Positions 1,021-47,844 of a DNA stretch of 64,000 nucleotides are shown here, in pieces. The DNA is taken from the NCBI GenBank assembly GCA_041937175.2, contig CP166615.1:4384001-4448000 (forward strand). Direction: 5' to 3'. Source of the DNA: Limnothrix sp. BL-A-16 (GTDB lineage Bacteria > Cyanobacteriota > Cyanobacteriia > CACIAM-69d). The first letter of the stretch is position 1, and each line of letters begins with the position of its first letter. Below the pieces are notes generated by a model. That model made no database searches. It was not told where the DNA came from and worked only from the letters and a program-made list of their open reading frames with translations. The position numbers and the translations under genes were made by a program.

Positions 1021-1040
1021 GGATTGAGAATGGGCCCGCC

Positions 1041-10210: not shown

Positions 10211-10254
10211 GTGAGGTGGTGAGTCTGTCATCAGATTCGCCACCTCACCTTTTT
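10211..10254 (+). terminator. Rho-independent terminator at the array trailer
   Basis: GTGAGGTGGTGAGTCTG-tcat-CAGATTCGCCACCTCAC-cTTTTT: a 17-bp stem whose two mismatches are G-U pairs on the + strand, followed by a T tract. Confidence 0.8.
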
Positions 10255-10923
10255 AATTGCCTCCACCTCCTTCAAATCCTTTTGCATCAGTAGAAACCCG
10301 TACTCCCCAAAATCGGAGCTTTAACCCGCCGATTCATACCTGGCTTACTCTCCGCCGCTCTCCGCCTCCGCTTCGTCACCCCCCGATCGCCTGTGATCTG
10401 TCACCACGTCACCAATTGATTCAGAAAACGCCCATCTTTCGCGTTCATTAGAGAGCGGAAATCAGCCGAAAGATAATCTTTGCATTTTTGTCTATTCCTC
10501 AATTCTGAAGCCTATTCCGTAACCTTCATCTGGAAAGCCTTGTCCCAATCGATCGACGGCGGTTGGCTGTCTCTTGGGTTTAATGAAACTAATTAGGAAA
10601 GCTTGCGACAATCATAGGTTGCTGAAATATTTGATTGCTTTGCATTCATATTGTTTTTATGTGCTTAACGATACCTAAAGGCAGGAAAATCGAGATTTTT
10701 CAAGTATAAAAACATTCATCAAACGCTAAGAACGATCAAATGTGCAAAGACTGAAAAATTGTATATTTGAATACGGTTTAAGATAAAATTAAAGAATTTC
10801 AAAAACTTGTAAAAAAATAATTCATGGTGACTTTTCCAAAAAAATTGGAGTACACTACCTGGGGAGTGCAGGCGTGCAAATACAGAGCGTCGCCGACCGT
10901 TAGCAACGTAAACAGTGACAGTC

Positions 10924-11130
10924 ATGGGAAATAGCACAAAGTCCTCGAAATTTCCGATTGTTATTGAAATGGAGCCACAGGCAAACTCTGACATCGAAGA
11001 ATTGGTGAACTCCGGCAAAGGTCTCATTTGTGACAACGTGTCCGTTGCCCTAGAACAACTGAAAGCCCAAGGAATTTTGCCCGAAAGCGTCATCCCCGTA
11101 TTTGTTGTTGTTGCATCCTCCGACGACTAG
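10924..11130 (+). CDS. Small 68-aa protein, paralogous to the C-terminal domain of the LamG protein at 13212
   Basis: FPIVIEME...IEELVNSGKGLICDNV...LKAQG...PVFVVV aligns with FPIIVELE...FEELLTKGNGVIYNGV...MREQG...PVFVII. The internal homology supports it being coding. ATG 10924; the track starts at GTG 10915. Confidence 0.75.
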   Translation: MGNSTKSSKFPIVIEMEPQANSDIEELVNSGKGLICDNVSVALEQLKAQGILPESVIPVFVVVASSDD

Positions 11131-11246
11131 TGAAGAACTGATGTGCAATCATCCCCAAAGGCCGCTGAGCTGAAGCTTGAGCTGAAGTTTTGGGGACAGA
11201 TTTCGCAAGTGTCCGATCGTCCCGTGTAAGCATCAGCACAAATTTA

Positions 11247-12971
11247 ATGATTCAGCCCGATCTGATCCCGATCCCACTGGAATTGCCGCCAGAGCAAAGA
11301 TTGCTCCCGGTTAATGACTTAAGCTTCCTGAAGAACCGAATCGTTTTGGTGTTGTACGAGGTTTCTCGGCTGACCCTCAAGTACTCCCTCAAGAATGCGA
11401 TGGGTGCAGCCAACCTCAAAGCAGAGCTGGCTCGGGATATTCGGTTCTCCATCGAAAAGCTGGGGGGATTGCTGATTAAGGTGGGTCAGCTCCTGTCGCT
11501 TCGTCTGGATCTCTTCCCCGCCGAAATTTGCCAAGAACTCTCCAAGCTTCAGGATCGATCCTATGGGTTTTCCCTGGACTATGTTCGGCAAATTATCCAA
11601 GAGGAATTAGGTCTCCCTCTGGAAAGGATATTCGTTGAGTTTGAAGAGCGGCCCTTTGCGGCTGCGTCAATCTCGCAAGTCCACAGGGCCCGAATCCCGT
11701 CCTTTCCTGGTGTGGTTGCCGTTAAGGTTCAGCGCCCAGATGTCGAAGAAAAGTTTAGCCAAGATCTACAGCTCATCCGCTTCCTGCTCTCCCTCATCAA
11801 AAAGCTGAAGCTACAGAGCTATGTGGATTGGGACAGCATCAGCCTAGAGCTGGATCAAATGATTCAGGAGGAAATTGATTATCGCTACGAAGCATCCAAT
11901 CTAGAGCAGATGGCAGCAACGCTCAGGGAACATAACATCTATGTTCCTGCTTTGATTGCTGACTACAGCACCAAAAAAGTCCTGACCACGGAATATATTC
12001 CCGGCATTTTGATGTCAGATTATATCCGCGCCGCCAGCACTGATCCCGAATATCTAGAAAAGATTCTTCGACTCAATAATATTGACCCGGAGTTGGTGGG
12101 CAAGCGTCTTTTTGAAAGTTTCTTCCGTCAAATGCTGGAAGATAACCTATTCCATGGGGACTTGCATCCTGGCAACATCATGCTGCTGCGGGATAGTCAC
12201 ATTTGCCTCATTGATTTGGGGGCGATCGGCAGTCTCGATTCCCACTTTCTGCGCTACTACCGGCGCAGTATGCAGGCCCTTGGAGAACGGGACTACGATC
12301 GAGCACTGGATTACAGTTTGATGTTGTGCGATTCCCTACCCGCAGGAGACATTGAAAACGTCAAAACGCAGCTCACCCAGTGCTATCGTCAGTGGGATGC
12401 CAAAATGAACATCCGCAGTCTTTCATACAATGAGAAGTCGATCGGCTCGATCGGTGTTCAAATTGGAACAGTCATGCGCAAGAACCGCATTTCCTCCAGT
12501 TGGCAATTGCTGCGAGTCTTCCGCACCTGGGGATTGATGGATGCTTCCTTGAACTATCTAATTCCCAACGCAGATTACATGAGTCTCGTTGGCGGATATT
12601 TTCGAGGTGCCGTTAAGCGCAGTCAGCTTCAGCTTAAGCAACTTGGCATCAATGGCATTGTGATGCAACTCACAGAAAAAGTTGCCGAACTTTCCGATCT
12701 GACAACGATCGAGCTTCGTAGTAAAGCAGTTCGCAAAAAAACAGTTGTTGATCAGAAAACCTCGTCAAAGCTCGCTGACAAAGCTAAAAAACTAATCTGG
12801 CTAGCGATCATCGTTCTGGCTTGGGTTTTCCTGCACCAACACCTCGAAATAGCCGTGAACTGGCTACCACCTAATCAATACTCGGCTTGGGCTGAAAGCA
12901 TCCCAGATCTCGCTATTGAAGTTTGGGTTGGGATCCTAATCTTCTGGGTCTACCTACTCAAAATTCTCTAG
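11247..12971 (+). CDS. ABC1/AarF/UbiB-family atypical kinase with C-terminal transmembrane helices
   Basis: IKVGQLLSLR (KxGQ), AAASISQVHRA (A-rich loop), VAVKVQRP, EIDYRYEA, FHGDLHPGNI, IDLG, and a hydrophobic C-terminus. Probable ATG 11247. Confidence 0.92.
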   Translation: MIQPDLIPIPLELPPEQRLLPVNDLSFLKNRIVLVLYEVSRLTLKYSLKNAMGAANLKAELARDIRFSIEKLGGLLIKVGQLLSLRLDLFPAEICQELSKLQDRSYGFSLDYVRQIIQEELGLPLERIFVEFEERPFAAASISQVHRARIPSFPGVVAVKVQRPDVEEKFSQDLQLIRFLLSLIKKLKLQSYVDWDSISLELDQMIQEEIDYRYEASNLEQMAATLREHNIYVPALIADYSTKKVLTTEYIPGILMSDYIRAASTDPEYLEKILRLNNIDPELVGKRLFESFFRQMLEDNLFHGDLHPGNIMLLRDSHICLIDLGAIGSLDSHFLRYYRRSMQALGERDYDRALDYSLMLCDSLPAGDIENVKTQLTQCYRQWDAKMNIRSLSYNEKSIGSIGVQIGTVMRKNRISSSWQLLRVFRTWGLMDASLNYLIPNADYMSLVGGYFRGAVKRSQLQLKQLGINGIVMQLTEKVAELSDLTTIELRSKAVRKKTVVDQKTSSKLADKAKKLIWLAIIVLAWVFLHQHLEIAVNWLPPNQYSAWAESIPDLAIEVWVGILIFWVYLLKIL

Positions 12972-13211
12972 TTTTGATGACATTTTTTCTTGGAGGTCAA
13001 TCCGATTCATGTAGAATATTAAGAAAGTCGAACATGCTTATTCGGCTATCAGGAAATATTCTAAAATTCGCGAGAGATGGTTGTTTTGTGAATTAAATTC
13101 AGGTCAGCATTAATACTTCAGTATTTAACACTCCAGTATTAATGAGCATGTCTGTTTTTATTCAATAGTTTGGTTTGGAAATGACACCAATCATCCAAGG
13201 TTCTAATCGCC

Positions 13212-14150
13212 ATGACTTCAGTACTGCATTTTGATGGTCAGTCGAATTACATCCGAATTCCCCATCAAGAGTCTCTCTCCCCCGTTAATAACTTCACCTT
13301 CGAAGCTTGGCTGAACGCTGGGCAAATTGGCGGTTACCTACGCTTATTCTCTAAATTTCCAGGCTTTGGCTTTGGCCTCATCAACGAAGCACTACTTTTT
13401 ACGGAATATTGGATTGTTGACTATGCAGCCCCCGTCGCGATCGAAGCGGGCACTTGGTATCACGTCGCCATCGTCTTCAACGCTGACAACGATGTGCTCT
13501 TCTATCTCGATGGAGAGCTAATCCAGACCATCCTAGGCGACACCCCCGCCTCCGCCACCCAAAGCCCCCTCGAAATTGGCCGCAAAGCAGAGGGCCACGG
13601 CGAATATTTCCAAGGCGATTTGACCGAAGTTCGGTTCTGGGGCACTGCTCGCACTCAAGAGCAAATCCAAGCCTATAAGTCCTATCGATTGCTCGGATCT
13701 GAGGAAAATCTATTGGGCTATTGGCCTTTAAACGAAGGCAGCGGAGATGTCATCCACGACAAGAGCACCGCTGCTAACCACGGCACTTTGCAAGGCTCCC
13801 CCATTTGGAAGAGTGCTGCACTGGAACTCCCAGAAATTCTTCCTCACATCCCGCTGCCCGCTGAGGTTCAAGAAGCCGAAGCCGCTGCCGCCGAAGCCGC
13901 TGCCGCAACCGACACCATCCCTAGCCCTGGTTCCTTCCCCATCATTGTTGAACTGGAATCCGATGAAGCAACGCCCGATCGGTGCTTCGAAGAGTTGCTG
14001 ACCAAAGGAAATGGTGTGATTTACAACGGAGTCACCCAAACCCTCGTCGCCATGCGGGAGCAAGGACAAATCACCAAAGCAACAACCCCCGTTTTTGTCA
14101 TTATTCGGCGCACTCCTGAAGCCAAGAGCCTACTGCCATTTTCTCTGTAG
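13212..14150 (+). CDS. LamG/concanavalin-A-like jelly-roll domain, Ala/Glu linker, and a C-terminal copy of the 68-aa domain
   Basis: LHFDGQSNYI, FTFEAWL, WYHVAIVF, FYLDG, YFQGDLTEVRFWGTART, LLGYWPLNEGSG...DKS...NHGTL form the typical cyanobacterial LamG signature. Confidence 0.88.
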   Translation: MTSVLHFDGQSNYIRIPHQESLSPVNNFTFEAWLNAGQIGGYLRLFSKFPGFGFGLINEALLFTEYWIVDYAAPVAIEAGTWYHVAIVFNADNDVLFYLDGELIQTILGDTPASATQSPLEIGRKAEGHGEYFQGDLTEVRFWGTARTQEQIQAYKSYRLLGSEENLLGYWPLNEGSGDVIHDKSTAANHGTLQGSPIWKSAALELPEILPHIPLPAEVQEAEAAAAEAAAATDTIPSPGSFPIIVELESDEATPDRCFEELLTKGNGVIYNGVTQTLVAMREQGQITKATTPVFVIIRRTPEAKSLLPFSL

Positions 14151-14316
14151 CATCCCCGAGAGCCAAGGCTAGTTGTCCAAGCCAAGGGTTGGAAAATTCA
14201 ACAACCCTGAGCCTAAGCTTCTATGCCCCTCACCGCCTCGCCTCAGAGCGTTTCAGAACGAGTTTCACAGGTCAATCAATTCTAGTTACGAGTTCTAGTT
14301 ACAAGGAGTTTGATTC

Positions 14317-15213
14317 ATGAGCAGCGGTAACTACAAAAACCTGGCACTGCAAGCAGGAGGCGTGTTAGGAACAGCCTACGTAGGGGTTGTGCAAGCCCTG
14401 AGTGAGCGCGGTCTTCTCTCCAAATTTGAGCGAGTTGCCGGGGCCTCCGCAGGAGCCATTATGGGAACCTTAATTGCCCTGAGGTTCTCGGCAGCAGAGA
14501 TCGAAGAAATTATGGTGAACCTGAACCTATCAGAGTTCACCGATCCCACCAGCCCGATTAATCTCGTCCAGAATTATGGTTACTACGCCGGGGATGTTTT
14601 CTATAAGTGGATTCAAGACATCATCGCGCGCAAACTAACAACAACCGCCACCTTTGCAGATCTCGTAGATGCTGGATTTGCCGATCTGTATATCTTCGGC
14701 ACAGACTTGACCGCTCGAGGATTGCGGGAGTTTTCCTGCCGCTCCACTCCTGACGCACAAGTTGCGGGCGCAGTGCGCGCTTCCATGTCTATTCCCTTCT
14801 TTTTCCAAGCTTGGCAATTTCCTGGTGGCATTCCCGATAACCACTACTATGTCGATGGTGGCTTGATCTTGCCCTACCCCCTGTGGACATTTGATTATCC
14901 GCCCTTCATCAGCGAAGATGGCTACAACGAAGAAACCTTGGGCGTGAGCTTAAGAACCGGCTTCAGCCCCTCCGGTCTAGAAAAAAGCTTTGACCTGAAG
15001 GAGTATTTTGAAAGCCTATTTGAGGCTGCATCCTCCATCCGAATCAGCTCTAGGAACCAAGAGCGGACGATCACCGTTGACACCTTGAATCTCTCGCCCA
15101 CTGATTTCAACATGAGCGACGAGAATAAGATGCGGCTAGTGAAAAGTGGTTATGATGCCACCGTAGAATTCTTCAAACTCAAGGATGAACTGGCAGTGCT
15201 CTCTGCTGCTTAA
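14317..15213 (+). CDS. Patatin-like phospholipase/esterase
   Basis: Oxyanion motif AGGVLG, nucleophile GASAG, ASMSIPFFF and catalytic DGG. RBS AAGGAG upstream. Confidence 0.92.
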   Translation: MSSGNYKNLALQAGGVLGTAYVGVVQALSERGLLSKFERVAGASAGAIMGTLIALRFSAAEIEEIMVNLNLSEFTDPTSPINLVQNYGYYAGDVFYKWIQDIIARKLTTTATFADLVDAGFADLYIFGTDLTARGLREFSCRSTPDAQVAGAVRASMSIPFFFQAWQFPGGIPDNHYYVDGGLILPYPLWTFDYPPFISEDGYNEETLGVSLRTGFSPSGLEKSFDLKEYFESLFEAASSIRISSRNQERTITVDTLNLSPTDFNMSDENKMRLVKSGYDATVEFFKLKDELAVLSAA

Positions 15214-15403
15214 GTGAGTGATGAATTCATGGGAGCAATGTCATTTCCCCATCTAAATTGGTCATGATATCGCGTTGACTAACTTGGGTATCTGTTCCCA
15301 ATCTGACAAGCATAATCAGTGCTAGCAAAGGCACTTTATGCAAAATTTTCTTAATTGGTCAGTTAGCTTCTCTCTGTCCTGCCACAAAGGGATGATTGCT
15401 CCC

Positions 15404-16678
15404 ATGAAATTTGGAATTGTCTGCCCACCTGTTCCAGGACATCTCTACGGGATGATGACCATTGGGCGGGAGCTAGAAAGGCGTGGGCACTCCGTTTACT
15501 TATTAGGAATCGGAGATGTTGAACCCTACGCTCGAAAGGGAGGGGTTGGTTTTGTTGAAATTGGAAAAGAGGAGTTTCCACCTGGAGCCTTAGACCAATA
15601 CCTCGACCTCATTCGTAATGTGACAATTTCCACAATTCGTAAGGGCGTTGCCTGGGCAGAGGTCATGTGTCAAGCCCTCTGCCGTGACGGGGCAACGGCT
15701 GCTCGTGAACTTGGTTTAGATGGTCTGTTGGTCGATCAAAGCCAAACGGAGGGAAAGACCATTTCCGACTTAACAGGGATTCCCTTCCTATCCATTTGCA
15801 ATGCTCTCAATCTGGAGGGCGATGCTTCTGGTGAGGCTCCGCCGCCCTTTGTTTCTTGGTATCCTGCACAAGGAAAAGCCCTATTTCGCCTCAGAAACCG
15901 TCTGGGCAATTGGGCTTTTTCTGCTGTTTTGAATCCCATCATCGCCACCACTAATAAGCTCAGAAAAGCTCACAGTTTGCCGTTACTTCAAAATTGGGAA
16001 AATTGTATTTCGCCCTTGGGTGTCATTAGTAATTTTCCATCGAAGCTAGATTTTTCCAGGGGCTTGAATCAGCGTCCCATTTTTTATACGGGGCCCTACC
16101 TGGATGAGCGGCCTAATGATGTGGCCTTTGATTGGAGCCTGTTAGATGGACGGCCTTTGGTCTATGCATCCATGGGCACGTTGCACACAGCTAAAAAGGA
16201 GATTTTGAGCGCCATTGTGGCTGCCTGCTCCACATTGCCTGTGCAGTTGGTTCTGAGTTTGGGGCAATGGACTTTGGAACAAGCTGATCAGTCTTTTCCT
16301 GCTGGCACGATCGCCGTACCCTATGCGCCTCAGCTTGCTCTGCTCCGGCGAGCATCCTTGGCAATCACGCATGGGGGTGCGAATACGGTTTTGGAAGCGC
16401 TTTCTTTTGGCTGTCCCTTGATTACGATTCCGCTGGCTAGCGATCAGCCTGCTGTTTCTGCTCGTGTCACTTGGGCGGGTGCAGGGACAACCATCGCTCA
16501 AAAGCAAGTGGATGCAGTACGGCTACGTCAATTGATTGTTCAGGTTTTGGAGAACCCCGATTTCAAAAATTGTGCTGGAGTTATGAAGACAGAAATTGAG
16601 AATTCCGGAGGTGTGAAAGCAGCGGTCAATGTAATTGAATCAGTCTTTAGTTCTGCTACTATTTCTGCTGCCCGTTAG
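15404..16678 (+). CDS. GT1-family (MGT/UDP-glycosyltransferase) glycosyltransferase
   Basis: N-terminal PPVPGH, VYASMGT, and the C-terminal signature PYAPQLALL...ITHGGANTVLEAL...IPLASDQP. Start may be 15338, 15392 or 15404. Confidence 0.92.
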   Translation: MKFGIVCPPVPGHLYGMMTIGRELERRGHSVYLLGIGDVEPYARKGGVGFVEIGKEEFPPGALDQYLDLIRNVTISTIRKGVAWAEVMCQALCRDGATAARELGLDGLLVDQSQTEGKTISDLTGIPFLSICNALNLEGDASGEAPPPFVSWYPAQGKALFRLRNRLGNWAFSAVLNPIIATTNKLRKAHSLPLLQNWENCISPLGVISNFPSKLDFSRGLNQRPIFYTGPYLDERPNDVAFDWSLLDGRPLVYASMGTLHTAKKEILSAIVAACSTLPVQLVLSLGQWTLEQADQSFPAGTIAVPYAPQLALLRRASLAITHGGANTVLEALSFGCPLITIPLASDQPAVSARVTWAGAGTTIAQKQVDAVRLRQLIVQVLENPDFKNCAGVMKTEIENSGGVKAAVNVIESVFSSATISAAR

Positions 16679-17271: not shown

Positions 17272-17589
17272 ATGCCAGAAGCCATGCGAACTCCCATTCA
17301 GGTTGGATCAGAAATCAAGCGAATCATCACATTTGAGGTTAACTCAATTGGTGAAGCCATGCCGGTTGTGATTTATAAAAAGAAGGTCGTTGACCCTGCT
17401 GCCCAACCAGGTGCGATCGAGGTTGCTCCAGTTTCTGCTAAGGGAATTTTGGAAAAGATTGTCGATTCGCAAATTCAGGCTGCCAGTGAGTTCAAAGTTC
17501 TCAATGAGCAATCAGGGGAGAAGTGGCTTAAAGACCTGGCCAAGAACATCTCACTCGCCATTGTTAAAGGCGGAGATGCACTTGCTTAA
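17272..17589 (+). CDS. Hypothetical ~105-aa protein
   Basis: GAGGA directly upstream of ATG 17272 (alternative ATG 17284), protein-like composition, and a strong hairpin after the stop. It is an isolated ORF in an AT-rich stretch. Confidence 0.7.
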   Translation: MPEAMRTPIQVGSEIKRIITFEVNSIGEAMPVVIYKKKVVDPAAQPGAIEVAPVSAKGILEKIVDSQIQAASEFKVLNEQSGEKWLKDLAKNISLAIVKGGDALA

Positions 17590-17611
17590 ATGGCGAGTTT
17601 TTCAGTCGGAC

Positions 17612-17929: not shown

Positions 17930-19228
17930 ATGTTTTCGTCTTCAGAATTTCCTGCTTCAGCGCAAGATAAAATTCAATACATCAGTTTGGCAACTTGCAA
18001 TGGCATTATCCAATGCATTTTTGCGCTAGATAGTTGTCTTAATGAGGAGCTTTTTTTCAAGAGCTTTGACTTGGTTTTAGAGTCAGAAGTGATTCTGCAA
18101 TGCCAGTGGGTAAACAATAGCGTATCACCCTACTGGTCGTTACCTGAAGAAAAACACAAAGACCGATTTAAACTACTTCAAGTGGTTGATGTGCAACAGG
18201 CGGTTGAAGAGTTTATATCTTGTTCGATCGATCCAACAACAGATAGTTTAGTTCAATTGAGAATTTTTCGACATCAAGACGAAAACGCGTTTCAAGATAC
18301 GTTTTGCCTCAAGATGTCACACATTGTTTCTGATCTCAGTGGACTCCGGTTTTTTCTTCAGTCCCTTGCTGAAACTTACGGGGTACTGCAAACCGGCCAA
18401 GAATGTGCCCCGAGTCCTGTGACCATTCGGCGCGATGGATGGCAAGTTTTTAGCAAGCTACCTCCAAAAAAAAGATGGCAATTGCTGCAAAAGGGTAAGA
18501 AAAACTTCTTAAAGCCAGGGCAATGGAAAATCCCATTTGATAACTATAATTACGAGGCTCCGACTTATACCACCTACCAATTGGGTCAGGAACAAATTGA
18601 AAGGCTGACTGAGTATGCCAAAGGGCGCGGGGCTACCTTGAATCAAGTTATGTTGACAGGTTTTTTGCGTGCCCTGCATCGATTCACGGACGCAGAACCC
18701 GATTCGTCGCTTCCGATTATCAACACCCTCGACCTTCGCCATTATCTCCGGCATGGGGATCTGCCTAAAATTTGCAATCTTTCGGTTCCGTTAGTTTCCA
18801 ACATTGATTTCAATCGAAAAGACTCTTTTGAAGACACATTATCTGGAATCAAATCAGATCTCATGAGTCAAAAAAGAACAATGCCTGGCATTTTGCCAGC
18901 AGTTTCGATGGAAGTTTTATTTCTTGCTCCGTTTTCGTGGATTAGTTGGTTATTTAATCAGGCATTTTCTCAGTTTGCTGAATCAGGAATTTGCACACCC
19001 TTATTTTCAGATGGTGGCAATGCTGACATCAGTATTCCAGGGCATCAAGTGGTTTATGCCTACGGTTTGGGGCCCATTGCTTATGCTCCAGCTTTTATGA
19101 TGACGGCTTCTACCTTTAGAAGTACTGTCACGTTTGCTGTGGGCTTCTGCGAATCTTCCATTAGTCGCAGTAATATGAACAAAATATTTGACTTGATGGC
19201 GGAGGAGTTTGCAAGCTGCACTGTCTGA
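17930..19228 (+). CDS. Stand-alone condensation-domain / CoA-dependent O-acyltransferase-like protein
   Basis: Active-site-like LKMSHIVSDLSG (HxxxD) preceded by LVQLRIF, plus GATLNQVML, TLDLRHYL and ICNLS. This is the pattern of the C-domain/PapA5/AATase superfamily. Confidence 0.75.
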   Translation: MFSSSEFPASAQDKIQYISLATCNGIIQCIFALDSCLNEELFFKSFDLVLESEVILQCQWVNNSVSPYWSLPEEKHKDRFKLLQVVDVQQAVEEFISCSIDPTTDSLVQLRIFRHQDENAFQDTFCLKMSHIVSDLSGLRFFLQSLAETYGVLQTGQECAPSPVTIRRDGWQVFSKLPPKKRWQLLQKGKKNFLKPGQWKIPFDNYNYEAPTYTTYQLGQEQIERLTEYAKGRGATLNQVMLTGFLRALHRFTDAEPDSSLPIINTLDLRHYLRHGDLPKICNLSVPLVSNIDFNRKDSFEDTLSGIKSDLMSQKRTMPGILPAVSMEVLFLAPFSWISWLFNQAFSQFAESGICTPLFSDGGNADISIPGHQVVYAYGLGPIAYAPAFMMTASTFRSTVTFAVGFCESSISRSNMNKIFDLMAEEFASCTV

Positions 19229-22688: not shown

Positions 22689-22772
22689 GTTGGCAGCCTC
22701 ATCCCAATCGCCCTAATCGCTTCAGTAATGACTGCCTCACGAAAAATTAAAGCTGATTTGAGATACCCCACC

Positions 22773-25700
22773 ATGACTCAAGATATCGCTGTAATTGGTT
22801 TGGCTGGTCGCTTTCCTGGGGCGGCGGATATTGATGAATTTTGGGGCAATTTGGCGGCAGGGGTGAACTCGATCGGGGAAATTCCGCCCGATCGCTGGGA
22901 TCACCAAGCCTACCGCGAACAAACGGGCAATAAATGGGGCGGTTTCCTAAAGGATTGGCGATCGTTTGATGCGGGATTTTTTGCCATTTCCCCCCGAGAA
23001 GCCAAGTACATGGATCCTCAACAGCGGTTGCTATTGGAGGTGGCTTGGCATTGCGTGGAAGAAGCCGGCCTGTCCTTAGCCTCGCTCCGTCAGCAGCCAA
23101 CAGGGGTCTATCTGGGTGCGATGACCATGGACTATTGGCAAGTCACGACGGATCCTCAGGTGGAAATTGATGGGTTTTCGGGGCTAGGCAGCTACAGTTG
23201 CATTCTGTCGAATCGGCTGTCCCATGTGTTGGGTCTCAGCGGCCCGAGCTTGACCCTGGACACGGCCTGCTCTTCGTCTTTGGTGGCCATCCATTTGGCT
23301 CGGCAGGCGTTGCTATCGGGTGAATGTGAATTGGCCTTTGCGGGTGGGGTGACCCTCAACCATCGTCCTTGGAAGCATCTGTCATTTTCCCGCGCAAGGA
23401 TGCTGAGTCCAACGGGTCAATGCCGCACGTTTGATGCTCAGGCCGATGGCTATGTGCCCGGCGAAGGCTGTGGGGTGCTGTTGCTTCAGCCCCTGGAACG
23501 GGCGATCGCCCAGAATCGCCGGATCTTTGGGGTGATTCGGGGCAGCGCCGTGAACCATTCGGCGGTGGGTGAGTCGATCACAGCCCCCAACGTGGGACGA
23601 CAGGCCCGACTGTTGAAGGCGGCCTACGCCGATGCCCAAGTGGATCCGGCCACGGTGACCTATGTGGAAGCCCATGGCACGGGAACTTCCCTGGGTGACC
23701 CGATCGAGATGGAGGCCCTTTCCCAGGCCTTCCGCACCACGGCCAAGGCGATCGGCTATTGCCAGGTGGGTTCCGTGAAAACCAACATCGGCCATTTGGA
23801 AGCGGCGGCGGGAATTGCCGGGGTGATCAAGGTCTTGATGATGTTGCAGCATCGCCAGATTCCCGCCAGCTTGAACTTAACGACTCCCAACCCGCTCATC
23901 GACTTCACCACCTCTCCCTTTGTGCCAGCGGTGGCGCTTGGTTCCTGGGAACCGGCGGCGGTGGATTTGCCGTTGCGAGCGGGGGTGAGTTCCTTCGGCT
24001 TTGGGGGCAGCAATGCCCACTTGGTGTTGGAAGAGCCGCCCCGGTTGCCCGTTGTGGCCGAGGGCGCTGGATCGCCGTTGGCGTTGGCGACAGGGGATCC
24101 GGGCCAAGGGGCCCCGGAGATGGGCGATCGGGCAACGGCCGTGATTCCCTTCCTGTTGTCTGCCAAATCAGCACGTAGCTTGGCCGCCTTGGTGGCTCAG
24201 TGGGGCCAGGAAGGGGCGCAACGGGTGGCCGCAGCCGACTTGGGGACGATCGCGGCGAACCTGGCCCTGGGGCGCGAGAGTTTGCCTTGGCGATTTGGTT
24301 GTTTGGCCAGCAGTTGGGCCGATGTGCAGCGGGCGTTGGCGCAATTTGAGCTGCCGTCTCAACCCGTGGCGGCGACGGTGGAAACGCCTTCGGAGGCGCG
24401 ATCGACCTTGGGCCGGCTGGTGCAAGATCCCGAGGCGTTCAAGGCCCTTTGGGCATCGGTGGCGTTGCCGGAGGCCGATTGGGAATCGGTGTTGCAGGTG
24501 GCCCGCACCCTGTGGCGACGGCAAATGACCTTTACGCGCTTTGTGGAAACCTGGCGGCAACCGTTGGCGCAGGCGGGCATTGACCTTGATTCAGTGTTGC
24601 AAGCTCCATTGCAATCAGAATCCTCATCCCCATTGCGATCGGCGGTACTGCAATCGGACTCACTGCGATCGAACGCACCTCACCCAGAGCATCGAATTTT
24701 GGTGTTTGTGGCAATTCGCAGCAGCTTGGCTCGCCTGTGCCAAAAGTGGGATTTGACCGATCGCTATCCCACGGGGTCGGCGGCCTTGGCGGAATTGGCG
24801 CGGGCCTTCACGGTGGGGGTGCTGGATCCGGCCATGGATTGGCCGGTTTTGCTGTCGGGATTGCTGCCCGATCGCCCGCGATCGGTGGCAGAGTTGCCCG
24901 AGGCGCTGGCTCCCGAGGATGGGGGAAGTTCGGTGCAGTCGGCCCTGGCGGCCTGGCTGGCGGGCCGCCCGGTGGATTGGTCAGCCCATTTCCCGGCCAC
25001 CTATCCCAAATTGTCCCTGCCGCGCTATCCCTTCGATCGCCAGTTGTATTGGCTCTTTCCCAAAACATCCGAGGGCGATCGGCCGGCTCCGTTGCCCGCT
25101 GCCACGGCGGCCCGTGAGGTGCTGCCCTCCTCCGGGGCCTCGTCGGAGCGCTGGGAACAGGTGTTTCCCGAAACAGATTTGGTGCTGCGATCGCACTTTT
25201 TAAATGGGCGCTGGATTTTGCCCGCCGCCAGCTTCATTGGCTTGGCCTGGGATGCGGTGACCCGATCGCTGGGGCGATCGCCCGGATTGCTAACAGAGAT
25301 TACCTTGCACCAGGCCGTGGCCTTGGGGGTGGGGGATGCGGAGGCCGTGACCTTGGGGGCCCAGGTGGAGTTGCCGAATCGGGTTCAGGTTTGGCAGCGC
25401 GATCGCCTGATTTTGAGCGCCACCTTTACGGATTCATCCTCAGAGTTGCCCCTCGATCAAGTGGCCGGGCGATCGCCGGATTCCCACGCGGTGGGCCGTG
25501 ATGGGGTGGGCGAGATTTCGGGAACGGCCATTTATGCCGCCTTGCGATCGCGCGGCTATCAGTATGGAAGAGCCTTGCAGGTGATCCATCAGGCCCAAAT
25601 CACCGATGAAGTAGCTACCTTCCAACTGCAAGCCCCCAATCGCACCGCCTTCTTGGATGGGATTTTGCAAGCGGCCGTGTATTTACACCAGCAATGGTTT

Positions 25701-28700
25701 GCGGAACGGGGCGGCGATCCTCGAGATTTTGTTGTGCCGGGGCAAGTGGTGGGCTGTTGGTGGGGATCCCAGTTGCAAGCCCAGTGGGAATCGTCATCCG
25801 CTTCAGCAATTTCCCCCACAGCATCGCCCGATCGATCCGCCGATCTGGAGACTGGCGAGCCTTCATCCTGGGTCACCGTGCGGTTTGAGCGCCAACAATG
25901 CCGGGCCCAGGCCACCGAAAGCCAGTTTTCGGCGATCGCGATCGGGACGGATGGCCGCCCCCTGGCCATGATTCGGGAGTTAACCCTGGCGGCGGCCCCC
26001 TTGCTTGCGCCGGAGGTGTCCTACTTTGAAACCGACTGGACTGTTTTGCCCGCCGCCACTGCATCCCCAACTCAGGCCACTGCCGCGCCGACGATCATCT
26101 TTGCCCAGGGGGCTGCTTGGGGCTTGGCCTTACGCCAACGGCTGCGATCGCAGGGAATTGAGGCTCAGTTGTGCCTAGCCGGTTCAACCTTTGAGGTTTT
26201 GGGCGATCGGGTTTGCCAGTGGGATTGGACAGATCCAGACCAAGTGCGCCAGGGCCTGACGCATCTGTTGGCTCCCGAGCAATTCCGGGCGATCGCAGGG
26301 GCCGACGCGATCGACTCGCCTCTTTCTCCAACCCTGGTCTATTGGGTCACGGCTCCCCCGGCGGCGGGGTCAGGTCATGGACTCCGGGGCGATCGGGATT
26401 GGGTCACCCAAGCCGAAGCCGATTTGAACCAGGGCGTGCGTGGTTGTTTTCTGTTCTTGCAGCGGTGGGCGAAAGTGCGCCCCGCCGATCCGCTCCAGCT
26501 TTTGGCCGTGACCTTTGATGCCCAAGCTGTGACCCCGAGCGATCGGGTTTTGGGGTTTGCCACGGCGGGGATTGATGCCTTGGGGCGCACGGTGGCCCTG
26601 GAGTTGCCCCAAATCCGCCTGAAATCCCTGGACTTGGCGTTGGGACTAACCGTTGGGGAAGCCAGCGCCATGATCGCGGCGGAAGCGGCGACCCCTTGGG
26701 AGCATGATCGCGTGGCCTATCGCGGGGGCGATCGCTATGGGGCCGAGTTGCGGGCAGTGGCCCCCGGATCTGCGCCTCCCTTGCCGGTTTCAGTCCTGGA
26801 GCCGGGATCTTGCATTTTAATCACCGGTGGGAGTGGGGCCTTGGCCGCAGAGGTGGCCGAGGCGATCGCGCTGCAAACGGCCGTTCATTTTCTGCTGGTG
26901 GGTCGATCACCCCGCCGGGCCCAAACTGACCAACTGATCGCCCTGCTGGAATCCTTGGGATCCACGGCGGATTATTTGCAAGTAGACCTGTGCCAAGAAG
27001 CCGACCTCGATCGACTCACAGAGACCCTGAAAACCACCCACCGCGCCATTCACGGCGTGATTCATACGGCTGGGCAATTAGACGATCGGCTGTTCCATGC
27101 CCAAACCCTCGCCTCCCTCGATCGGCTGATTGCTCCCAAGTTCCTTGGGGCCTTGCGCTTGGAACAACGGTTGCAGGATCAGCCCGTGGCCTTTTGGTTG
27201 GGATTTTCCTCAATCACCGTGGCGGCCGGCAACCCTGGACAGGCGAACTACGTGGTGGCGAATCGGCTGCTGGAAGCCTTTTGTGCTTACCGCGATCGCC
27301 ATTGGCCCGGACGCGCCGGGGCGATTCAGTGGGGCCTGTGGCGATCGCGCGGCATGGGAGCCACCGACATGCTGGCCGAGCGGTTCCAGCGATCGGGCAT
27401 GGAACCCTTTAGCGCGGCAGCCGGTCGGTTTGCCTTCCTTGATGTGCTGACCAGCGATCGCCCTCAGCCCGTCCTGGTCACCGGTAAAGGCACGGACGCA
27501 ACCATCTTTGAGCGCTTCTCCCGATCGCGCCCCGCTCCGAATGTGGCCCCAGCCTTGCCTGCTCCCCTGACCCCGGCGGCGATCGCCCCATCTGCTCCGC
27601 CGCCCCAGCCCACCCCCTCGATCGCCACCATCGAGCAAGAATTGGCCGCCCTGGTTGCCCGCACCCTGAACACCGATCCCCAATCCGTGCCCCGTCAGGA
27701 AGGGTTTTTCAGCCTGGGTCTGGAGTCCTTGATGATTGAGGAAATTGTGGCAACCCTCGAAAAGCAATATTCCGGCCTGCGGCCCACCGTCCTGTTTGAC
27801 TATCCGAACATCAAAGTGCTGGCCACCCACCTGGCCCAGCTAACCGCGCCCGCTGGATCCACCACCGCGCCGGCCACTCCATCTCCGGCGGCCCCCTCTC
27901 CATTGGCCTCAGTTCCTAGCCCGGTCGCGCCAGCCCCAACCCAGGTCACCCGATCGCCCAATCCTGTACCCTTCCTGGGGCCGCAAGCTTTGGCCGCCAA
28001 AGCTCCCGATCTCAAGACTTCCGATATTCAAGCTCCTGAGGTGAAGGCCCCTGAGGCGAAGGTTCCTGACACCGGAGCCACCAACACTCAGGCCCCCATC
28101 CCCCAAACCCAGAGCCTGGAGTTGCCCGATCGGCAGCGGCCCCCCGGTGGCTATGACATCGCGATTATTGGGATCGATGGTTGCTATCCCCAGTCTCCTG
28201 ACCTGGAGACCTTTTGGCAAAACCTGTATCAAGGGCGATCGTGCGTCACGGAAGTGCCCGCCAACCGTTGGGATTACCAGCCGTACTTTGCGGAAACCAA
28301 ACAGCCCAATCGCACCTATGGCAAGTGGGGCGGCTTTATCCCGGGGGTTGAAGAATTTGACCCGCTGTTTTTTAACATTGCGCCCAAGGAAGCCAAGCAA
28401 ATTGACCCCCAAGCGCGGCTGTTTCTCCAGTCGGTTTGGCACACGATGGAAAATGCGGGCTATGGCAGCCGTCAATCGCGCCGGGGAGAACGGGTTGGCC
28501 TCTTTGTTGGGGCCATGTGGCACGACTATTCCCACGTGGCGCGGGATTTAAGTTGGAGTGCCGATCAGCCCAGTGGCGCTGGGGCCTTGTTTTGGATTAT
28601 TGCCAACCGGGTTTCCCATTTCCTGGATTTCACGGGGCCCAGTTTGGCGATCGATACCGCTTGTTCTTCGTCCCTGACGGCGATTCACTTGGCTTGCCAG

Positions 28701-31418: not shown

Positions 31419-32651
31419 GCGATCGGGACAGCAGCCAGTGGCCTTGGTTCGATCGTGGGGCGATGTTTAACCGCAGATCGCTAGGGGCCAGAATTCGCCA
31501 GCAGCGGGCCCGCATCTCCGGCCATGCCGATCCGATCGTGCTCGCCAGGCCGCAGCCATTCAAGTTGGGGCTTGGAAGATGGCTATTCAGACCCTCCAAA
31601 GGTCTCCATTCAAACAGGATCACAAATAGCCCTCCACTTTTTCCTCCTTTAAACATTCTTGCGATCGCAAAATTAGGCCCCAAGAAATCCGGTGAGCCTC
31701 CCTTGAACCTCCTTGCCATCTTGGAGCCATCCAGATTCTGAAGGAGATTGTATTGAAATTAACAAATCAAGGAACCCCAACGCCCAATGAAAATATTTGA
31801 GACTCATCCTATGTAACTTTCAATACTTGCTATTTCCTTGGAGTTGCTCTTTAAAAATTCAAGTTAAGAACCGTAAACAAAACTAAGTTTTAGAGATGCT
31901 GAAATCCTGTAAAGCGAGCAATGCTTAGGTTTTGTCCTTTACTTCCGCATAGTCAACCAAGGAGTATCATCTCCATAAACCGATCCATAAACATAATTTT
32001 ATTATTGGATATTTTGTTGCCAGGATTTCCTTGGCAACCCTATCATCGGAATTAGGGGCTGATGATATACTCGACAAAGGGGGTAACCACAGGTTAACGT
32101 TTGAAGTGCCACCAAGCTTTTACCGAAATTTCGTCCGATAGGTTCCTCATCGAAAATTTCGGTTATAGAACGTCTTAACCTTTTGTGGAAAATGCCTTTT
32201 GGTTCTCAGGTGAACTAATTTGGTATTCACTACTAATGACCAATCAAGGGCAATCAATCTTGATCCAGAAAAGTTCGCTGCCGAAAAACTGTATAACATC
32301 GAACCAAATTCAAAAATTCTACCCAAAGAATCAAAATTGCTTTTGCTTATCTGTCAAAAACTAACATCAATTAAGTTTTGATTGATTTGCTCTTTTTCTC
32401 AAAAATTAATAATCTTTCATCGTTTTCAGGCGTTTTTCGTGCTTTCAAGCTCTGCTTTTGGCAGGATGAGTTTGCTTTAACTTGATTTTGACTAGCGAAT
32501 TGATTCCGAATTGGCACAATTTCCGCTACTTGTACGATTGCCGATCAATTGTGACCCAGTTGTTAAAACTAGCCGATGTCAGAGCTTCTATAACGATCTT
32601 GGGCCTGGTCAATATTCCTGAAAGATTGAGATTCAAAATCCTTCATGACCA

Positions 32652-35600
32652 ATGAATGACCTTAATCAAAGTGCTGAACAAAGTTATCAAGTTGATGTTC
32701 AGCTCCAAGACCCTGTTATTCGTGACTATTGCGTTTTTGAGCAACCAACACTGCCGTTTAGTTGCTTACTAGATCTGATCCTTCGGATTGCAATGAGTCG
32801 CAATGCAAGACTAAACGAGGATCAAACAGAATTAGTCATTAATCATTTGCACTATATTCGTCCAATCGTTTTCAGGGGGTCTCAGAAGCATCATTTACGA
32901 GTGGTATTTCAGCCCATGGAATCGGAGGCGCGAATTACCAGAACTCGAATCACAGTGGCAGGCGCTGAGGCGGCTCAAGGTTCGGAAGACCAAGGCCACT
33001 GGCAACTTTATTTGCATTGCCAACTTGAAACAAAAAAGTTAGCAACAGAGGGGCCTGCTCGATCGCCTCTGCCTCTATCTTTGCTGCGTCATTTAGATAG
33101 CCATGAGCCTAGTGATAGTTGGCCACATCGGATCGCAGAATTGCAAGAATTGGGCTTGCAGTTAGGCGAGTTTTATCAAGGCCAAGGTGCTTTGTGGCGA
33201 ACTGAAGAATGGCTTGTGACCCGGTGGCAACTCAGCTCACTGGCAGCGGGATATGGTCACAGTTTTCTGCTGCACCCGGCTTGGCTCACGGCGGCGTTGC
33301 TGATGCCGGTAGGCGAGGCGGCGATGGTGCAGCGCGGGATTCCGCTGGTGTCGGAGGTGGCTTCCTGTCGGGTTTGGCGGCCGGGGGTGGCGATCGACTA
33401 TGCGGCAATACCGTTGCCCGGGTCGCAAGACCGTTTCGATCTGCTGTTGTTGGCGGCTGATGGTCAATTGGTGGCATCGCTGGAGGGGTGTGTTGTGTCT
33501 TGGGTGCAGAATGGGGCTGATTTCCTGGGCCGATCGGGGCCGGCGGCGGTGGGGCCCGGCCTCGATCGGCTGTCTGACTCACTGGGGGCTGGCTTCTCGC
33601 GGCCGGTCACCTTCACTTCGGCGGATCCGATGCTGCGAGATCATCGGGTGCGATCGCTTGGGGTGGTTCCGGGGGGCTATTTCTTAACGATGTTGTTGGC
33701 GGCTGGGGCCGCCGGAGCGCCTGCCAGATCCCGATCGCAGTGGCGCGATGTGCGGTTTTTGGCCCCGGCGGTGGTCGATCGCGACCCACTGACCGTAATG
33801 TTGCAGACCGGCGGCCAAGGGGCCGAAGGGGAAATTTTCCAAATTGTGGACTCGGCGGGACAGGTGTTTTGTCGGGCCACCCACGGTGGCCCGGCCAAGC
33901 CAGCCCCGGCCCTGTTGGAGCAAGCACCGGAGTTAACCGCCCAGACAATGGCGGCGGCAACGGTTTACGACGCGATCGCCCTGCGGCAATTTTTCTTGGC
34001 CCGGGGTTTGGACTATGGCTTCAGTTGCCAATGCCTAACCCAAGTGACGGTTTTGCAGGACTGGGCTTGGGGAGAGGTTCGGGAAACGGGGGGCGAAGAC
34101 TGGGCGATCGTGGATGCGGCATTTCAGGTGGCGGCCGCGTTGCTGGCGAATGGGGCTAACCCGGTGGGTGCATTACCCCAACCGGCCGATTCCTTGAATT
34201 CCCGTGACCTCCAACGGGAACCAAAACCCGCGCCGCCCTTGGAGCCGTTATTAGTGCCCTACGGCATTGATGCCTGCTGGTTAGATGGCTCGCTGGTGGA
34301 TGTGCGGCGGATTGGGGTGCGCTGTACCCATCGCCGATCGCGCGGTGGGCAATTTGATCTGATGGGCTTGGATCGCCACGGCAATCGAGTGTTTCTGATT
34401 CAAGGGGGGCGGTTGCAAATGGCCCAATGGCAACCCGCGCAAGGGCAGCAATCGGCTGCACCCGAGCCTCCTAGGCCCGATCGGGAACCCCCCTCAGAGC
34501 CGATCGACCAGGAGCCGTTGCGATGGTTCCAGCCCCAATGGCGACCTTGCCCCGCCCCGAACCTGGCCAGCGAAACGGTGTTGGAAGAGGCGGGTTGGGG
34601 GTTGCTTTGCTCCGCTCAGGGGCCGGTTCCGGCGGTGATTCACGAGGCGGCGATGCTGGCCCACCGGGGACAGGTGCTTGAGCAATGGCCCGATCGCCCT
34701 GACTCTGCCCCAACCATCACCACGGTTTGGTATTGGCCCGCGATCGGGGAGGAAGGGCCGATCTTGCTATGGCGGTTCCTGAAGACGCTTCAGGAGCGAT
34801 TCCCCTCCCCAACGCCCTTAGCGCTACGGGTGATCACAATGGGGGCGGCGGCGGTGGAACCCACCGAAACCCCGCAACCGGATGCGGCGGCGATCGTGGG
34901 CTTGCTGCACAGTTTGGCGGCGGAGTCTCCCCATTGGCAGATGGGCCATGTGGATGTGAATGAGACCTGGCTGGCTAACGGCCAAGCGTCCTCCCTGCTA
35001 GCAGCTTTGACGATTAATCTGTCGGCGACTTCCCAGCGCTGTGAGCTGGCGCTGCGATCGAGCGGTCTCTATCGGCGTGACCTGGTTGCCATCCCAGTTC
35101 CCCCCACGCCTGCAACCCCATCGCCCTTGCCCCTCAGACCCGGCGGGGTTTACGTCATTGCGGGTGGCGCAGGAGGCATTGGAGCCGCCCTGGCCCAGCG
35201 ATGGGCCGCCAGGATCCCGGGGCTGCGGCTGGCGTTGTTGGGGCGGCGGCCGTTGGATGCAGCGATTCAAGAACTCCTGCAAGCCTTGATCACCGCCGGA
35301 GCCACGGCCATCTATGAGGCGGTGGATATTACAGATGCGGCCGCGATCGAGTCCCTGTTTGCCACCCTGCGATCGCGCTATGGCGCAATCCACGGCGTGA
35401 TTCATTCCGCCCTGGTGCTGCGGGATGGCCTGTTGGCACAAATGAGCGAGACCGACTTTCAGGTCGCTTTTGGGGTCAAGGCCGCGGGCATCCGGGCCTT
35501 GGCCCAGGCCACGGTTCTTGATCGGCTGGACTTTTTCGCTTGTTTTTCGTCCTTGAATTCCTTCCTTGGCAATGCGGGCCAGGGGAATTACGTGGCCGGC

Positions 35601-47842: not shown

Positions 47843-47844
47843 CC

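Follow-up and report, generated by a model that had tools for sequence, protein, structure and literature searches.

A DUF6200, DUF6312 and ABC1/UbiB gene set that accompanies PKS/NRPS clusters in cyanobacteria and other bacteria

A strictly co-occurring set is made up of DUF6200, DUF6312 and a separate clade of ABC1/UbiB ATPase/kinases, which are membrane-anchored and have two C-terminal membrane helices. The cassette described here, from Limnothrix sp. BL-A-16, is a local copy of this conserved three-part accessory set, which accompanies chemically unlike PKS/NRPS clusters. It lies in a stretch of 64,000 nucleotides of contig CP166615.1 (the window), and its genes, all on the plus strand, precede two trans-ATs, a PPTase and a megasynthase. 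Neither the name DUF6200 nor the name DUF6312 was found in the literature searched, and a DUF6200-DUF6312-ABC1 gene set travelling with PKS/NRPS clusters, in cyanobacteria as well as in other bacteria, is undescribed. The three-part set may offer a handle on what ABC1/UbiB proteins do.

DUF6200 is present twice in the window. The first copy is a free-standing protein of 68 aa (10924..11130, + strand) that begins with the ATG at 10924, the ORF list opening earlier, at GTG 10915. The second (13923-14123, + strand) belongs to the C-terminal part, aa 238-304, of a LamG fusion protein. The two had been claimed to be paralogues, with their significant alignment as a test set beforehand, and they do align: 21 of 57 residues (37%) are identical between the free protein and residues 242-298 of the LamG protein, with an E value of 8e-11 in a single BLASTP comparison. 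The family, tentatively named DUF6200 in the original prediction, is identified as such by Pfam PF19702, which gives the free copy 29.5 bits in the window and 28.3 bits in the genome scan (cut-off 26.9) and the LamG C-terminus 22.8-25.8 bits, slightly below the cut-off. An independent profile of 143 sequences, none from the window, was searched against 1178 stop-to-stop frames and matches exactly two of them, the free copy (E 4.6e-14) and the LamG C-terminus (E 4.5e-10); the third-ranked frame has an E value of 1. These two are also the only DUF6200 matches in the whole 4.56-Mb genome.

As the original prediction held, the two copies bracket an ABC1 protein and a patatin comes after them. The former, 574 aa long (11247..12971, + strand), is an ATPase/kinase of the ABC1/UbiB family and belongs to the DUF6200-linked clade; a PF03109 score of 207.8 bits against a cut-off of 22.9 places it in the superfamily. 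Its gene probably starts at ATG 11247 and not at the listed TTG 11190, judging from an alignment with eight orthologues. The protein retains the motifs KxGQ, Ala-rich loop, VKVQRP, HGDLHPGN and IDxG, which are conserved across nine clade members, and it has two hydrophobic segments at the C-terminus (515-537 and 552-574). End-to-end matches (residues 16-588, 34-37% identity, 339-402 bits) are obtained only to the cluster-linked copies of three other genomes (G160, G274 and G344), whereas housekeeping ABC1 paralogues match in the core alone, with 113-159 bits. In a tree, the nine DUF6200-linked proteins are split from 17 housekeeping paralogues with an SH-aLRT of 100; the same genome has four housekeeping ABC1 genes, and the window protein falls in the separate clade. 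Two narrower identities were rejected. The protein is below both equivalog cut-offs of UbiB proper (257.2 against 487.55 bits for TIGR01982, 202.2 against 667 bits for PRK04750), and it scores 124.2 against 800 bits for the macrolide-binding ATPase MABP-1 (NF050082), its two C-terminal hydrophobic segments being present.

Linkage of the homologues was the other test set beforehand, and they prove to be tied to this special ABC1 clade and to PKS/NRPS clusters. The phylum sample comprised 401 genomes, in which DUF6200 was counted above its cut-off and a cluster-type ABC1 was accepted at E<=1e-65 among the three best candidates per genome. DUF6200 occurs in four of the 401, and the cluster-type ABC1 occurs in the same four and in none of the other 397. 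DUF6312 is found in three of the four, while the fourth, the genome studied here, has a divergent copy. Five further DUF6200 genomes carry one cluster-type ABC1 each (5/5), and the clade is present in all ten DUF6200-bearing cyanobacterial genomes examined. In five genomes with fragmented assemblies, ABC1 and DUF6200 fall on separate contigs, so that these genomes bear on co-occurrence and not on adjacency. Elsewhere the order DUF6200, ABC1, LamG-tag is common to the window and a Roseofilum locus, and the three partners stand side by side on a metagenome contig (L079). The triad is also found on non-cyanobacterial metagenome contigs of 54-66% GC and in distant cyanobacteria, with varying neighbours and gene orders. 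The synthases adjoining it include trans-AT and cis-AT types, the latter with a reductase end, as well as those with a sulfotransferase-thioesterase end or an AprA-type starter, and NRPS.

The third member, DUF6312, is a lysine-rich protein of roughly 95 residues. In the window, a 105-aa ORF (17272..17589, + strand) is the sole match of a 14-sequence DUF6312 profile among the 1178 frames (E 4.8e-5, 19.6 bits, profile positions 4-91), the runner-up having an E value of 3.8. By hhalign, it is related to seven cyanobacterial DUF6312 sequences with a probability of 58% (E 9.7e-5). Pfam's own DUF6312 model (PF19831) finds no match in the genome at E<=1 and none on this ORF at 0.1; its identity as a divergent DUF6312 is therefore likely rather than certain.

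The LamG-DUF6200 fusion (312 aa, 13212..14150, + strand; Laminin_G_3 88.3 bits, DUF6200 22.8 bits) is followed by a patatin-like phospholipase/acyl hydrolase of 298 aa (14317..15213, + strand; PF01734, 101.5 bits), which has the G-x-S-x-G and D-G-G motifs of its family. A GT1-family glycosyltransferase comes next (15338..16678, + strand; UDPGT 59 bits, EryCIII-like_C 51.8 bits). It is nearest to macrolide glycosyltransferases and belongs to the wider GT1/UDPGT group only, with 128.3 bits against a cut-off of 260 for the NCBIfam macrolide glycosyltransferase family MGT (TIGR01426) and 74.6 against 700 for the self-immunity glycosyltransferase OleI (NF000362). A condensation/WS-DGAT/PapA5-like acyltransferase (17930..19228, + strand) scores 34.9 bits for Condensation, and 20.2 and 19.4 bits for WS_DGAT_C and PapA_C, each below its cut-off; between it and the PapA-like gene at the Roseofilum locus there is no detectable similarity. 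Two free-standing acyltransferases (19454-20326 and 20381-21370, + strand; Acyl_transf_1 123.7 and 104.6 bits) and a PPTase (21939-22688, + strand; ACPS 47.9 bits), with which the low-GC accessory block ends, precede the trans-AT type PKS megasynthase genes (22728..63999, + strand). These encode multiple KS, KR, DH, MT, ER and ACP domains and are KS-rich, with KS-AT-linker remnants and no integrated AT domains. The glycosyltransferase is GT1 in the window and GT4 in other cyanobacterial loci, and the acyltransferases are not homologous; true conservation is therefore confined to the triad.

Each of the small domains exists both as a free protein and at the extreme C-terminus of larger ones, which are lectin-like (LamG, beta-trefoil) or lipase proteins and have no signal peptide. 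Among the best 150 DUF6200 matches, the domain is at the extreme C-terminus in all nine that exceed 180 aa. The cargo is one to eight LamG domains, beta-trefoil/DUF7910 or Lipase_3, and low-complexity linkers precede the tag in the fusion ends inspected. The window fusion has this layout: a Laminin_G_3 domain (13233-13670, + strand; PF13385, residues 8-153, 88.3 bits against 27.6), an Ala/Glu/Pro linker, DUF6200 and a tail that contains basic residues and is hydrophobic at its end. Across the family, at least three K/R follow the second strand in 97 of 145 DUF6200 sequences, and at least three hydrophobic residues stand within the last six in 107 of 145.

The best reading, which is held tentatively, is that the two domains serve as address or assembly tags and bring lectin and lipase cargo to a membrane site at which the ABC1 ATPase handles the lipophilic product. 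The ABC1 protein, seated in the membrane, would use ATP to bind or extract the product; free copies of DUF6200 and DUF6312, together with the tagged lectin-like and lipase proteins, would collect at this membrane or lipid site, and their basic-plus-hydrophobic tails would probably assist. In the window, such a station would bring together a macrolide-type glycosyltransferase, an O-acyltransferase, a sugar-binding LamG domain and a patatin esterase; between them these could mask and hold the trans-AT polyketide and, at a later stage, unmask or release it. The architecture, with DUF6200 C-terminal on LamG, beta-trefoil and lipase proteins, fits the tag-on-cargo part of the original prediction, whereas recruitment to the kinase and a part in polyketide trafficking, storage or resistance go beyond the architecture and are kept here as conjecture. 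Two features of the window count against a tag station: its patatin has no DUF6200 tag, and its free DUF6200 protein is without the basic/hydrophobic tail frequent elsewhere in the family. The lipid hydrolase of other genomes is fused to the tag, as Lipase_3-DUF6200.

ABC1 ATPases working with accessory proteins are known from UbiB with UbiJ/UbiK in E. coli and from COQ8 with the CoQ synthome, and COQ8/UbiB are thought to bind or extract quinone intermediates. The present set likewise has a membrane-associated KxGQ-domain ATPase encoded with small non-enzymatic partners and a lipophilic product. It differs in that the ABC1 protein is below the UbiB equivalog cut-off and apart from the housekeeping clade, in that the partners are DUF6200 and DUF6312 instead of SCP2 or coiled-coil proteins, and in that these also serve to tag lectins and lipases at the C-terminus, in a PKS/NRPS and not a quinone context. 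In plant plastoglobules, ABC1 kinases occur on a lipid body with fibrillins, which are lipid-binding proteins, and with lipases and acyltransferases. Here too ABC1 stands alongside esterases/lipases and acyltransferases, with lipocalin-like genes in two cyanobacterial loci; however, the present set has no known lipid body, plastoglobules offer no counterpart to the tags and the lectin cargo, and the likeness is an analogy only. Macrolide glycosylation self-immunity is represented by OleI/OleD-OleR. The window glycosyltransferase is nearest to macrolide enzymes including the OleI type and has a hydrolase encoded nearby, but a glycosidase is absent, both family cut-offs are missed and other loci use GT4. 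MABP-1 (Rv3197)/MSMEG_1954 belongs to the same superfamily and is the best solved-structure match (7cy2, E 5e-30; 5yjz, E 5e-29), and no DUF6200/DUF6312 partners are described for MABP-1. As a precedent for the tag-station reading, ABC1-family ATPases bind erythromycin and confer macrolide resistance, MABP-1/MSMEG_1954 bind the macrolide polyketide and protect the cell, and MABP-1 is without membrane helices (PMC8696161), unlike the window protein with its two C-terminal segments. A housekeeping paralogue is just as similar to MABP-1 (108.3 bits) as the cluster clade (107.9 bits), so that macrolide binding by the clade is an analogy only.

It is rather unlikely that the tags belong to an unrecognised ABC1/UbiB-dependent targeting or export system, whose dedicated membrane ABC1 ATPase recognises them and assembles the lectin and lipase cargo, along with free tag proteins, into a station for lipophilic PKS/NRPS products. 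If true, this would be a bacterial counterpart of the lipid-body proteome and the first defined client-protein set for a UbiB-family member. A plain export signal is unlikely: DUF6200 and DUF6312 would be uncleaved C-terminal secretion or sorting domains with which the tagged lectins and lipases, like the free small proteins, exit the cell along a type-I-like or other route, and the ABC1 protein would serve the product only, or energise or gate export. Type I secretion substrates are characterised by a C-terminal signal and no N-terminal signal peptide, with a cognate ABC/MFP/OMF system encoded nearby. The tags stand strictly at the C-terminus, no N-terminal signal peptide is seen, and the scans found neither a signal peptide nor a hydrophobic segment in the window fusion and no hydrophobic segment in the three cargo proteins scanned. 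The cargo includes LamG repeats of up to 1916 aa and class-3 lipases, domains that are more usual extracellularly, which favours export. Membrane-fusion, outer-membrane-factor or MacB-type genes are present in three of ten metagenome loci (L076, L087 and L088), and a C39-peptidase ABC transporter adjoins DUF6200 in another (L092). However, such efflux genes are ordinary product exporters of biosynthetic clusters, and transporter genes are absent from the accessory block of the window and from the 20-kb Roseofilum locus. Moreover, the strict partner is an ABC1 protein, a type not known to move proteins, and RTX-type repeats were not noticed. Like type I signals and cohesin-dockerin tags, DUF6200 is a short C-terminal module reused on varied cargo, and like type I substrates the cargo includes lipases and giant repeat proteins without signal peptides. 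Unlike those signals and tags, it is a conserved domain, folded in its model and also found as a free protein, and the window encodes neither a dedicated transporter nor a receptor scaffold; DUF6200 was found to be related to neither system in sequence or fold.

Direct product binding is improbable. A DUF6200 oligomer would form a small hydrophobic pocket that carries or sequesters the polyketide received from ABC1, as a self-resistance sponge or chaperone, and in the fusions lectin or lipase activity would be directed at the bound product. The AF2 model of the free protein (145-row alignment, pLDDT 82.9) suggests a beta-alpha-alpha-beta domain of roughly 60 residues (strand 15-18, helix 24-33, helix 37-51, strand 62-65). 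Both modelled strands are hydrophobic on both faces, as judged from the sequences, and the sole recurrent fold resemblance, a weak one (Z 2.2-2.9), is to 4-oxalocrotonate-tautomerase-type beta-alpha-beta units, which oligomerise into pockets. The fold search with the model gave no known fold match, its best Z of 3.2 being at noise level. Near-invariance is limited to G, G and P, an odd pattern if the domain formed a ligand pocket, and the same domain stands alongside very different products. The sponge model put forward for MABP-1 (PMC8696161) counts for product binding.

Equally improbable is that DUF6312, DUF6200 or both are phosphorylated by ABC1, or act as a switch on it, to control cluster output; the fusions would then be regulated enzymes. 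Phosphorylation of partner proteins is reported for the ABC1 kinases of plant plastoglobules. The protein-kinase activity of COQ8 is disputed. Every catalytic motif is kept in the ABC1 clade, and the seven cyanobacterial DUF6312 sequences have invariant Ser, Tyr and His positions; in DUF6200, by contrast, none of Ser, Thr and Tyr is invariant. For MABP-1/MSMEG_1954, no protein-kinase activity was found (PMC8696161), and this speaks against phosphorylation.

The accessory block is of foreign base composition, with GC3 of 0.41-0.57 in all ten accessory genes against 0.66-0.75 in the flank and PKS genes. That the genes merely hitch-hike in a mobile low-GC block, without joint function, is suggested by this composition but is highly improbable, as the triad recurs in distant cyanobacteria and on the 54-66% GC contigs with other neighbours and orders, and co-occurrence is all-or-none across the 401 genomes. 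The foreign composition of the whole block and the third partner, DUF6312, are both additions to the original prediction.

DUF6200 (PF19702), DUF6312 (PF19831) and a special membrane clade of ABC1/UbiB proteins are inherited as one set of three families, which accompanies chemically varied thiotemplate clusters. DUF6200 and DUF6312 also occur as C-terminal domains fused to lipases and lectin-like proteins. The original prediction of two paralogous segments holds in the window. The 68-aa ORF (10924-11130) is a paralogue of the C-terminal ~70 residues of the 312-aa protein encoded at 13212-14150 (BLASTP, 21/57 identical, E 8e-11). The family name DUF6200, which the original prediction had suggested as a possibility, is also correct, because the Pfam assignment and an independent profile agree on both copies. 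Against the Pfam model the 68-aa ORF reaches 29.5 bits (cut-off 26.9) and the C-terminus of the LamG protein 22.8 bits, slightly below cut-off. The independent profile, built from 143 family members of which none comes from the window, was run on all 1178 stop-to-stop frames and matches just these two, at E 4.6e-14 for the first and 4.5e-10 for the second; the third-best frame has E 1. They are the only DUF6200 copies in the 4.56-Mb genome.

Both copies belong to an accessory block of ten plus-strand genes that starts at ~10.4 kb. Genes for a CHAT protein, a hybrid sensor kinase-cyclase and LepA lie upstream of the cassette, and a plus-strand CRISPR array (7303-10165; 40 identical 36-nt repeats, spacers of ~34-39 nt) immediately precedes it. 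The array is followed by a terminator-like hairpin with a 17-bp stem (10211-10248), and no cas genes were seen within the window. In the block, the free DUF6200 protein is followed by an ABC1/UbiB protein with two C-terminal hydrophobic segments, whose start is placed by orthologue alignment probably at 11247, by the LamG-linker-DUF6200 protein, by a patatin, by a GT1 glycosyltransferase closest to macrolide GTs, and by a 105-aa ORF at 17272-17589. A condensation/WS-DGAT/PapA5-like acyltransferase, two free acyltransferases (trans-ATs) and a PPTase complete the ten, and megasynthase genes of the trans-AT type begin at 22728.

The second gene encodes a member of the ABC1/UbiB superfamily, with all the catalytic motifs and membrane helices. 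It matches the cluster-linked copies over residues 16-588 with 339-402 bits, whereas the match with housekeeping paralogues is confined to the kinase core, with 113-159 bits. In a tree of 26 proteins, nine DUF6200-linked ABC1 proteins are split from 17 housekeeping ones (SH-aLRT 100); the placement of the window protein within the clade is unsure because of its long branch. UbiB proper and MABP-1 were both rejected as its identity, the scores being below the curated cut-offs. The clade has no particular affinity to MABP-1 either, as a housekeeping paralogue scores equally.

Co-occurrence was assessed in a sample of 401 genomes from a single phylum and, beyond it, in opportunistic metagenome contigs. 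DUF6200 scores above cut-off in 4 of the 401 genomes, and 14 more contain only partial matches of 19-22 bits. The same four genomes, and 0 of the 397 others, contain a full-length relative of the window ABC1 (E<=1e-65), in a census limited to the three best-ranked candidates of each genome. Three of the four have DUF6312, and the Pfam model for this family has no match in the Limnothrix genome. A 14-sequence DUF6312 profile, which includes non-cyanobacterial members, matches the 105-aa ORF at near full length (E 4.8e-5, unique among the 1178 frames). Since hhalign likewise supports this match, the window probably holds the complete triad. Kinship between DUF6200 and DUF6312 themselves was rejected (hhalign probability 0.06%). 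Five further DUF6200 genomes, all fragmented, have one cluster-type ABC1 gene each (5/5), located on a different contig from the DUF6200 locus and in one case split across two contig ends.

An exhaustive HMM search with an 11-sequence DUF6200 alignment against 1.84 billion representative proteins gave 597 matches at E<=1e-3 and 99 at E<=1e-10, mostly free proteins of 70-110 aa. Among the best 150 of the 597, DUF6200 forms the extreme C-terminus in all nine matches longer than 180 aa. The fusions inspected are class-3 lipases, beta-trefoil/DUF7910 proteins or the LamG protein, and low-complexity linkers come before the domain in the fusion ends viewed. With a word-indexed protein search the window protein matched only itself, and the only longer proteins were lipase fusions. 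The ESM Atlas yielded DUF6200 clusters only, with Cyanobacteriota and Acidobacteriota as the commonest phyla, and nothing for DUF6312.

A one-genome-per-species scan gave 11 DUF6200 loci, every one cyanobacterial, from Roseofilum, Symploca, Okeania (two), Dapis, Anabaena, Trichodesmium erythraeum (three), a Trichodesmium MAG and a Cyanobacteriota MAG. Three of them coincide with the loci of the sampled genomes G160, G274 and G344, giving ten DUF6200-bearing genomes including Limnothrix BL-A-16. As annotated by Pfam, the recurring neighbourhood comprises one or two free DUF6200 genes, a free DUF6312, an ABC1 protein of ~595 aa, proteins with one to eight LamG domains, or with Lipase_3, that terminate in DUF6200 or DUF6312, a glycosyltransferase, and a PKS or PKS/NRPS. 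The glycosyltransferase is GT4 wherever it is seen in the other loci (7/9 other genomes) and GT1 in the window. The linked synthases are diverse, being reductase-terminated, sulfotransferase-thioesterase-terminated, equipped with an AprA-type starter or mixed with NRPS modules, and of the trans-AT type in the window. In Dapis (L047:12599-16288) a DUF6312-DUF6200-DUF6200-GT4 head is paired with an AprA-type (tert-butyl-forming) loading module, which adds to the variety of linked chemistry. The gene order DUF6200, ABC1, LamG-tag is common to the window and the Roseofilum locus; the condensation-like gene of the window was rejected on comparison as a counterpart of the Roseofilum PapA-like gene.

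Some loci present features of their own. The second DUF6200 locus of Trichodesmium (L036, G274:C1:2636001-2656000) contains two DUF6200 genes, a GT4 and a weak DUF6312 match; it adjoins a Psb27-family gene and has no PKS within 10 kb. A marine metagenome contig, L095, has a nearly identical layout. Lipocalin_5 genes occur within two linked clusters (L040:14843-15868 and L038:14768-15253) and not in the window; they recall the plastoglobule fibrillins, which are lipocalin-like. DUF6208 (PF19713, ~315 aa) adjoins the cluster-type ABC1 at the cyanobacterial locus L042:7003-7959 and DUF6312 at the metagenome locus L079:3805-4743, and may be an optional fourth member of the set. It was not found in the Limnothrix genome, by a search that had no match in any control genome either. 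For T. erythraeum, PMC12090762 describes a cryptic PKS cluster, Tery_3819-3822, which is induced at low iron and may correspond to one of the DUF6200 loci.

Outside the cyanobacteria, 20 loci were retrieved from metagenomes with the basic DUF6200 form of ~85 aa as query. Ten distinct ones of at least 3.7 kb were annotated, with a GC content of 0.53-0.66 save for L095, which is Trichodesmium-like and has 0.34; two loci whose ORF layout nearly duplicates that of another (L080 that of L079, L084 that of L083) and eight shorter loci were left out. ABC1 of the same clade is found in 4/10, DUF6312 in 5/10, and PKS, NRPS or FAS-type genes in 7/10. In L092 and L095 no ABC1, DUF6312 or PKS/NRPS/FAS-type genes and no membrane-fusion, outer-membrane or MacB-type efflux genes were found, and such absences carry little meaning because many contigs are short. 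On L081, a contig of 66% GC, two large ORFs at 4734-9524 (1597 aa) and 2976-4625 (550 aa) stand beside DUF6312 and DUF6200, and neither matches a Pfam family at E<=1e-5.

Structurally, AlphaFold2 with a 145-row alignment models DUF6200 as a strand-helix-helix-strand unit (pLDDT 82.9); with 11 rows the strands are absent and the pLDDT is 73. Conservation is near-complete at three positions only, two glycines in the turn between the helices and a proline preceding strand 2. A ribbon-helix-helix DNA-binder was rejected, as no match to such a fold appeared, strand 1 pairs with the C-terminal strand in the model, and DNA binding would make no sense of the lectin and lipase fusions. Past strand 2, at least three Lys/Arg are present in 97/145 sequences, and the terminal hexapeptide is mostly hydrophobic in 107/145. 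DUF6312 is lysine-rich too and has a conserved C-terminal helix motif containing Trp. Peripheral membrane anchors typically consist of basic residues and then a hydrophobic end. Such a tail is kept in the LamG copy of the window, and the free copy is without it.

It is quite conceivable, though tentative, that a membrane is where the ABC1 ATPase acts on the lipophilic product, and that DUF6200 and DUF6312 would carry their cargo to this site. The first step is suggested by analogy with COQ8/UbiB and with MABP-1/MSMEG_1954; in PMC8696161 the latter, ATPases of the ABC1 family, are described as erythromycin binders that confer macrolide resistance. A cycle in which the product is masked, held and unmasked would accommodate the macrolide-type glycosyltransferase, acyltransferase, LamG domain and patatin of the window. 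The two tags could instead be export signals, which is rather unlikely; membrane-fusion, outer-membrane or MacB-type efflux genes are present in 3/10 annotated metagenome loci, and a hydropathy scan revealed no hydrophobic segments in three cargo proteins or the patatin (the N-termini of six further fusions were judged by eye only). That DUF6200 itself is a product-binding sponge or carrier is improbable. For the model of pLDDT 82.9, Foldseek found no match in the PDB at E<=0.001, and VIA-align against 48,161 chains gave a top Z of 3.2 and no convincing likeness. Equally improbable is a role of the small proteins as kinase substrates or regulators. A complex prediction that paired residues 20-530 of ABC1 (alignment of 9 rows) and the free DUF6200 protein (145 rows) scored 0.00 in two runs without controls, and counts neither for nor against contact. 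Mere hitch-hiking of the genes, set beside their co-occurrence, is very hard to credit. What probability remains belongs to an explanation so far unimagined.

The closest precedents are UbiB with UbiJ/UbiK and the plastoglobule ABC1 kinases with lipid-body proteins. The triad likewise joins an ABC1/UbiB protein to accessory partners, and is rated as a new form of a known arrangement; to our knowledge, nothing similar to its reusable C-terminal tags on lectins and lipases exists in either system. There is a real chance that the set of DUF6200, DUF6312 and ABC1 is a new targeting system. A full-text literature search for "DUF6200" and "DUF6312" found no paper, though both exist in Pfam, and in a term search of a Roseofilum paper kinase, lipase and lectin were unmentioned. 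The function of ABC1/UbiB proteins is a long-standing open question, and two dedicated small partners and obvious tagged clients make binding, localisation and ATPase tests straightforward. The triad also marks a portable accessory block that recurs with dissimilar polyketide and peptide clusters, both of marine cyanobacteria (Trichodesmium, Okeania, Dapis, Symploca, Roseofilum, Anabaena) and of other phyla. This block may control how lipophilic and often toxic products are stored or released, or how the producer protects itself from them; such functions are usually absent from cluster models.

The base composition of the window is uneven. GC3 is 0.41-0.57 in all ten accessory genes (10900-22700), including both trans-ATs and the PPTase, and 0.66-0.75 in the left flank (1-7300) and the PKS genes (22728-64000). 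The cluster is therefore a compositional mosaic, and the whole accessory block is compositionally foreign, including the trans-ATs which the PKS needs. A donor of lower GC may be its source, for example one of the filamentous marine cyanobacteria with the same triad. Between the first and second megasynthase genes, a 1.2-kb gap without convincing ORF (31419-32651) is followed by a stretch of ~400 bases at the start of the second gene (32652-33050) with a GC of 0.44, against at least 0.6 beyond; this is possibly a recombination scar. With GTG 38636 as its listed start, the third megasynthase ORF shares 163 bases (38636-38798) with the end of the second, and its true start is probably further downstream.
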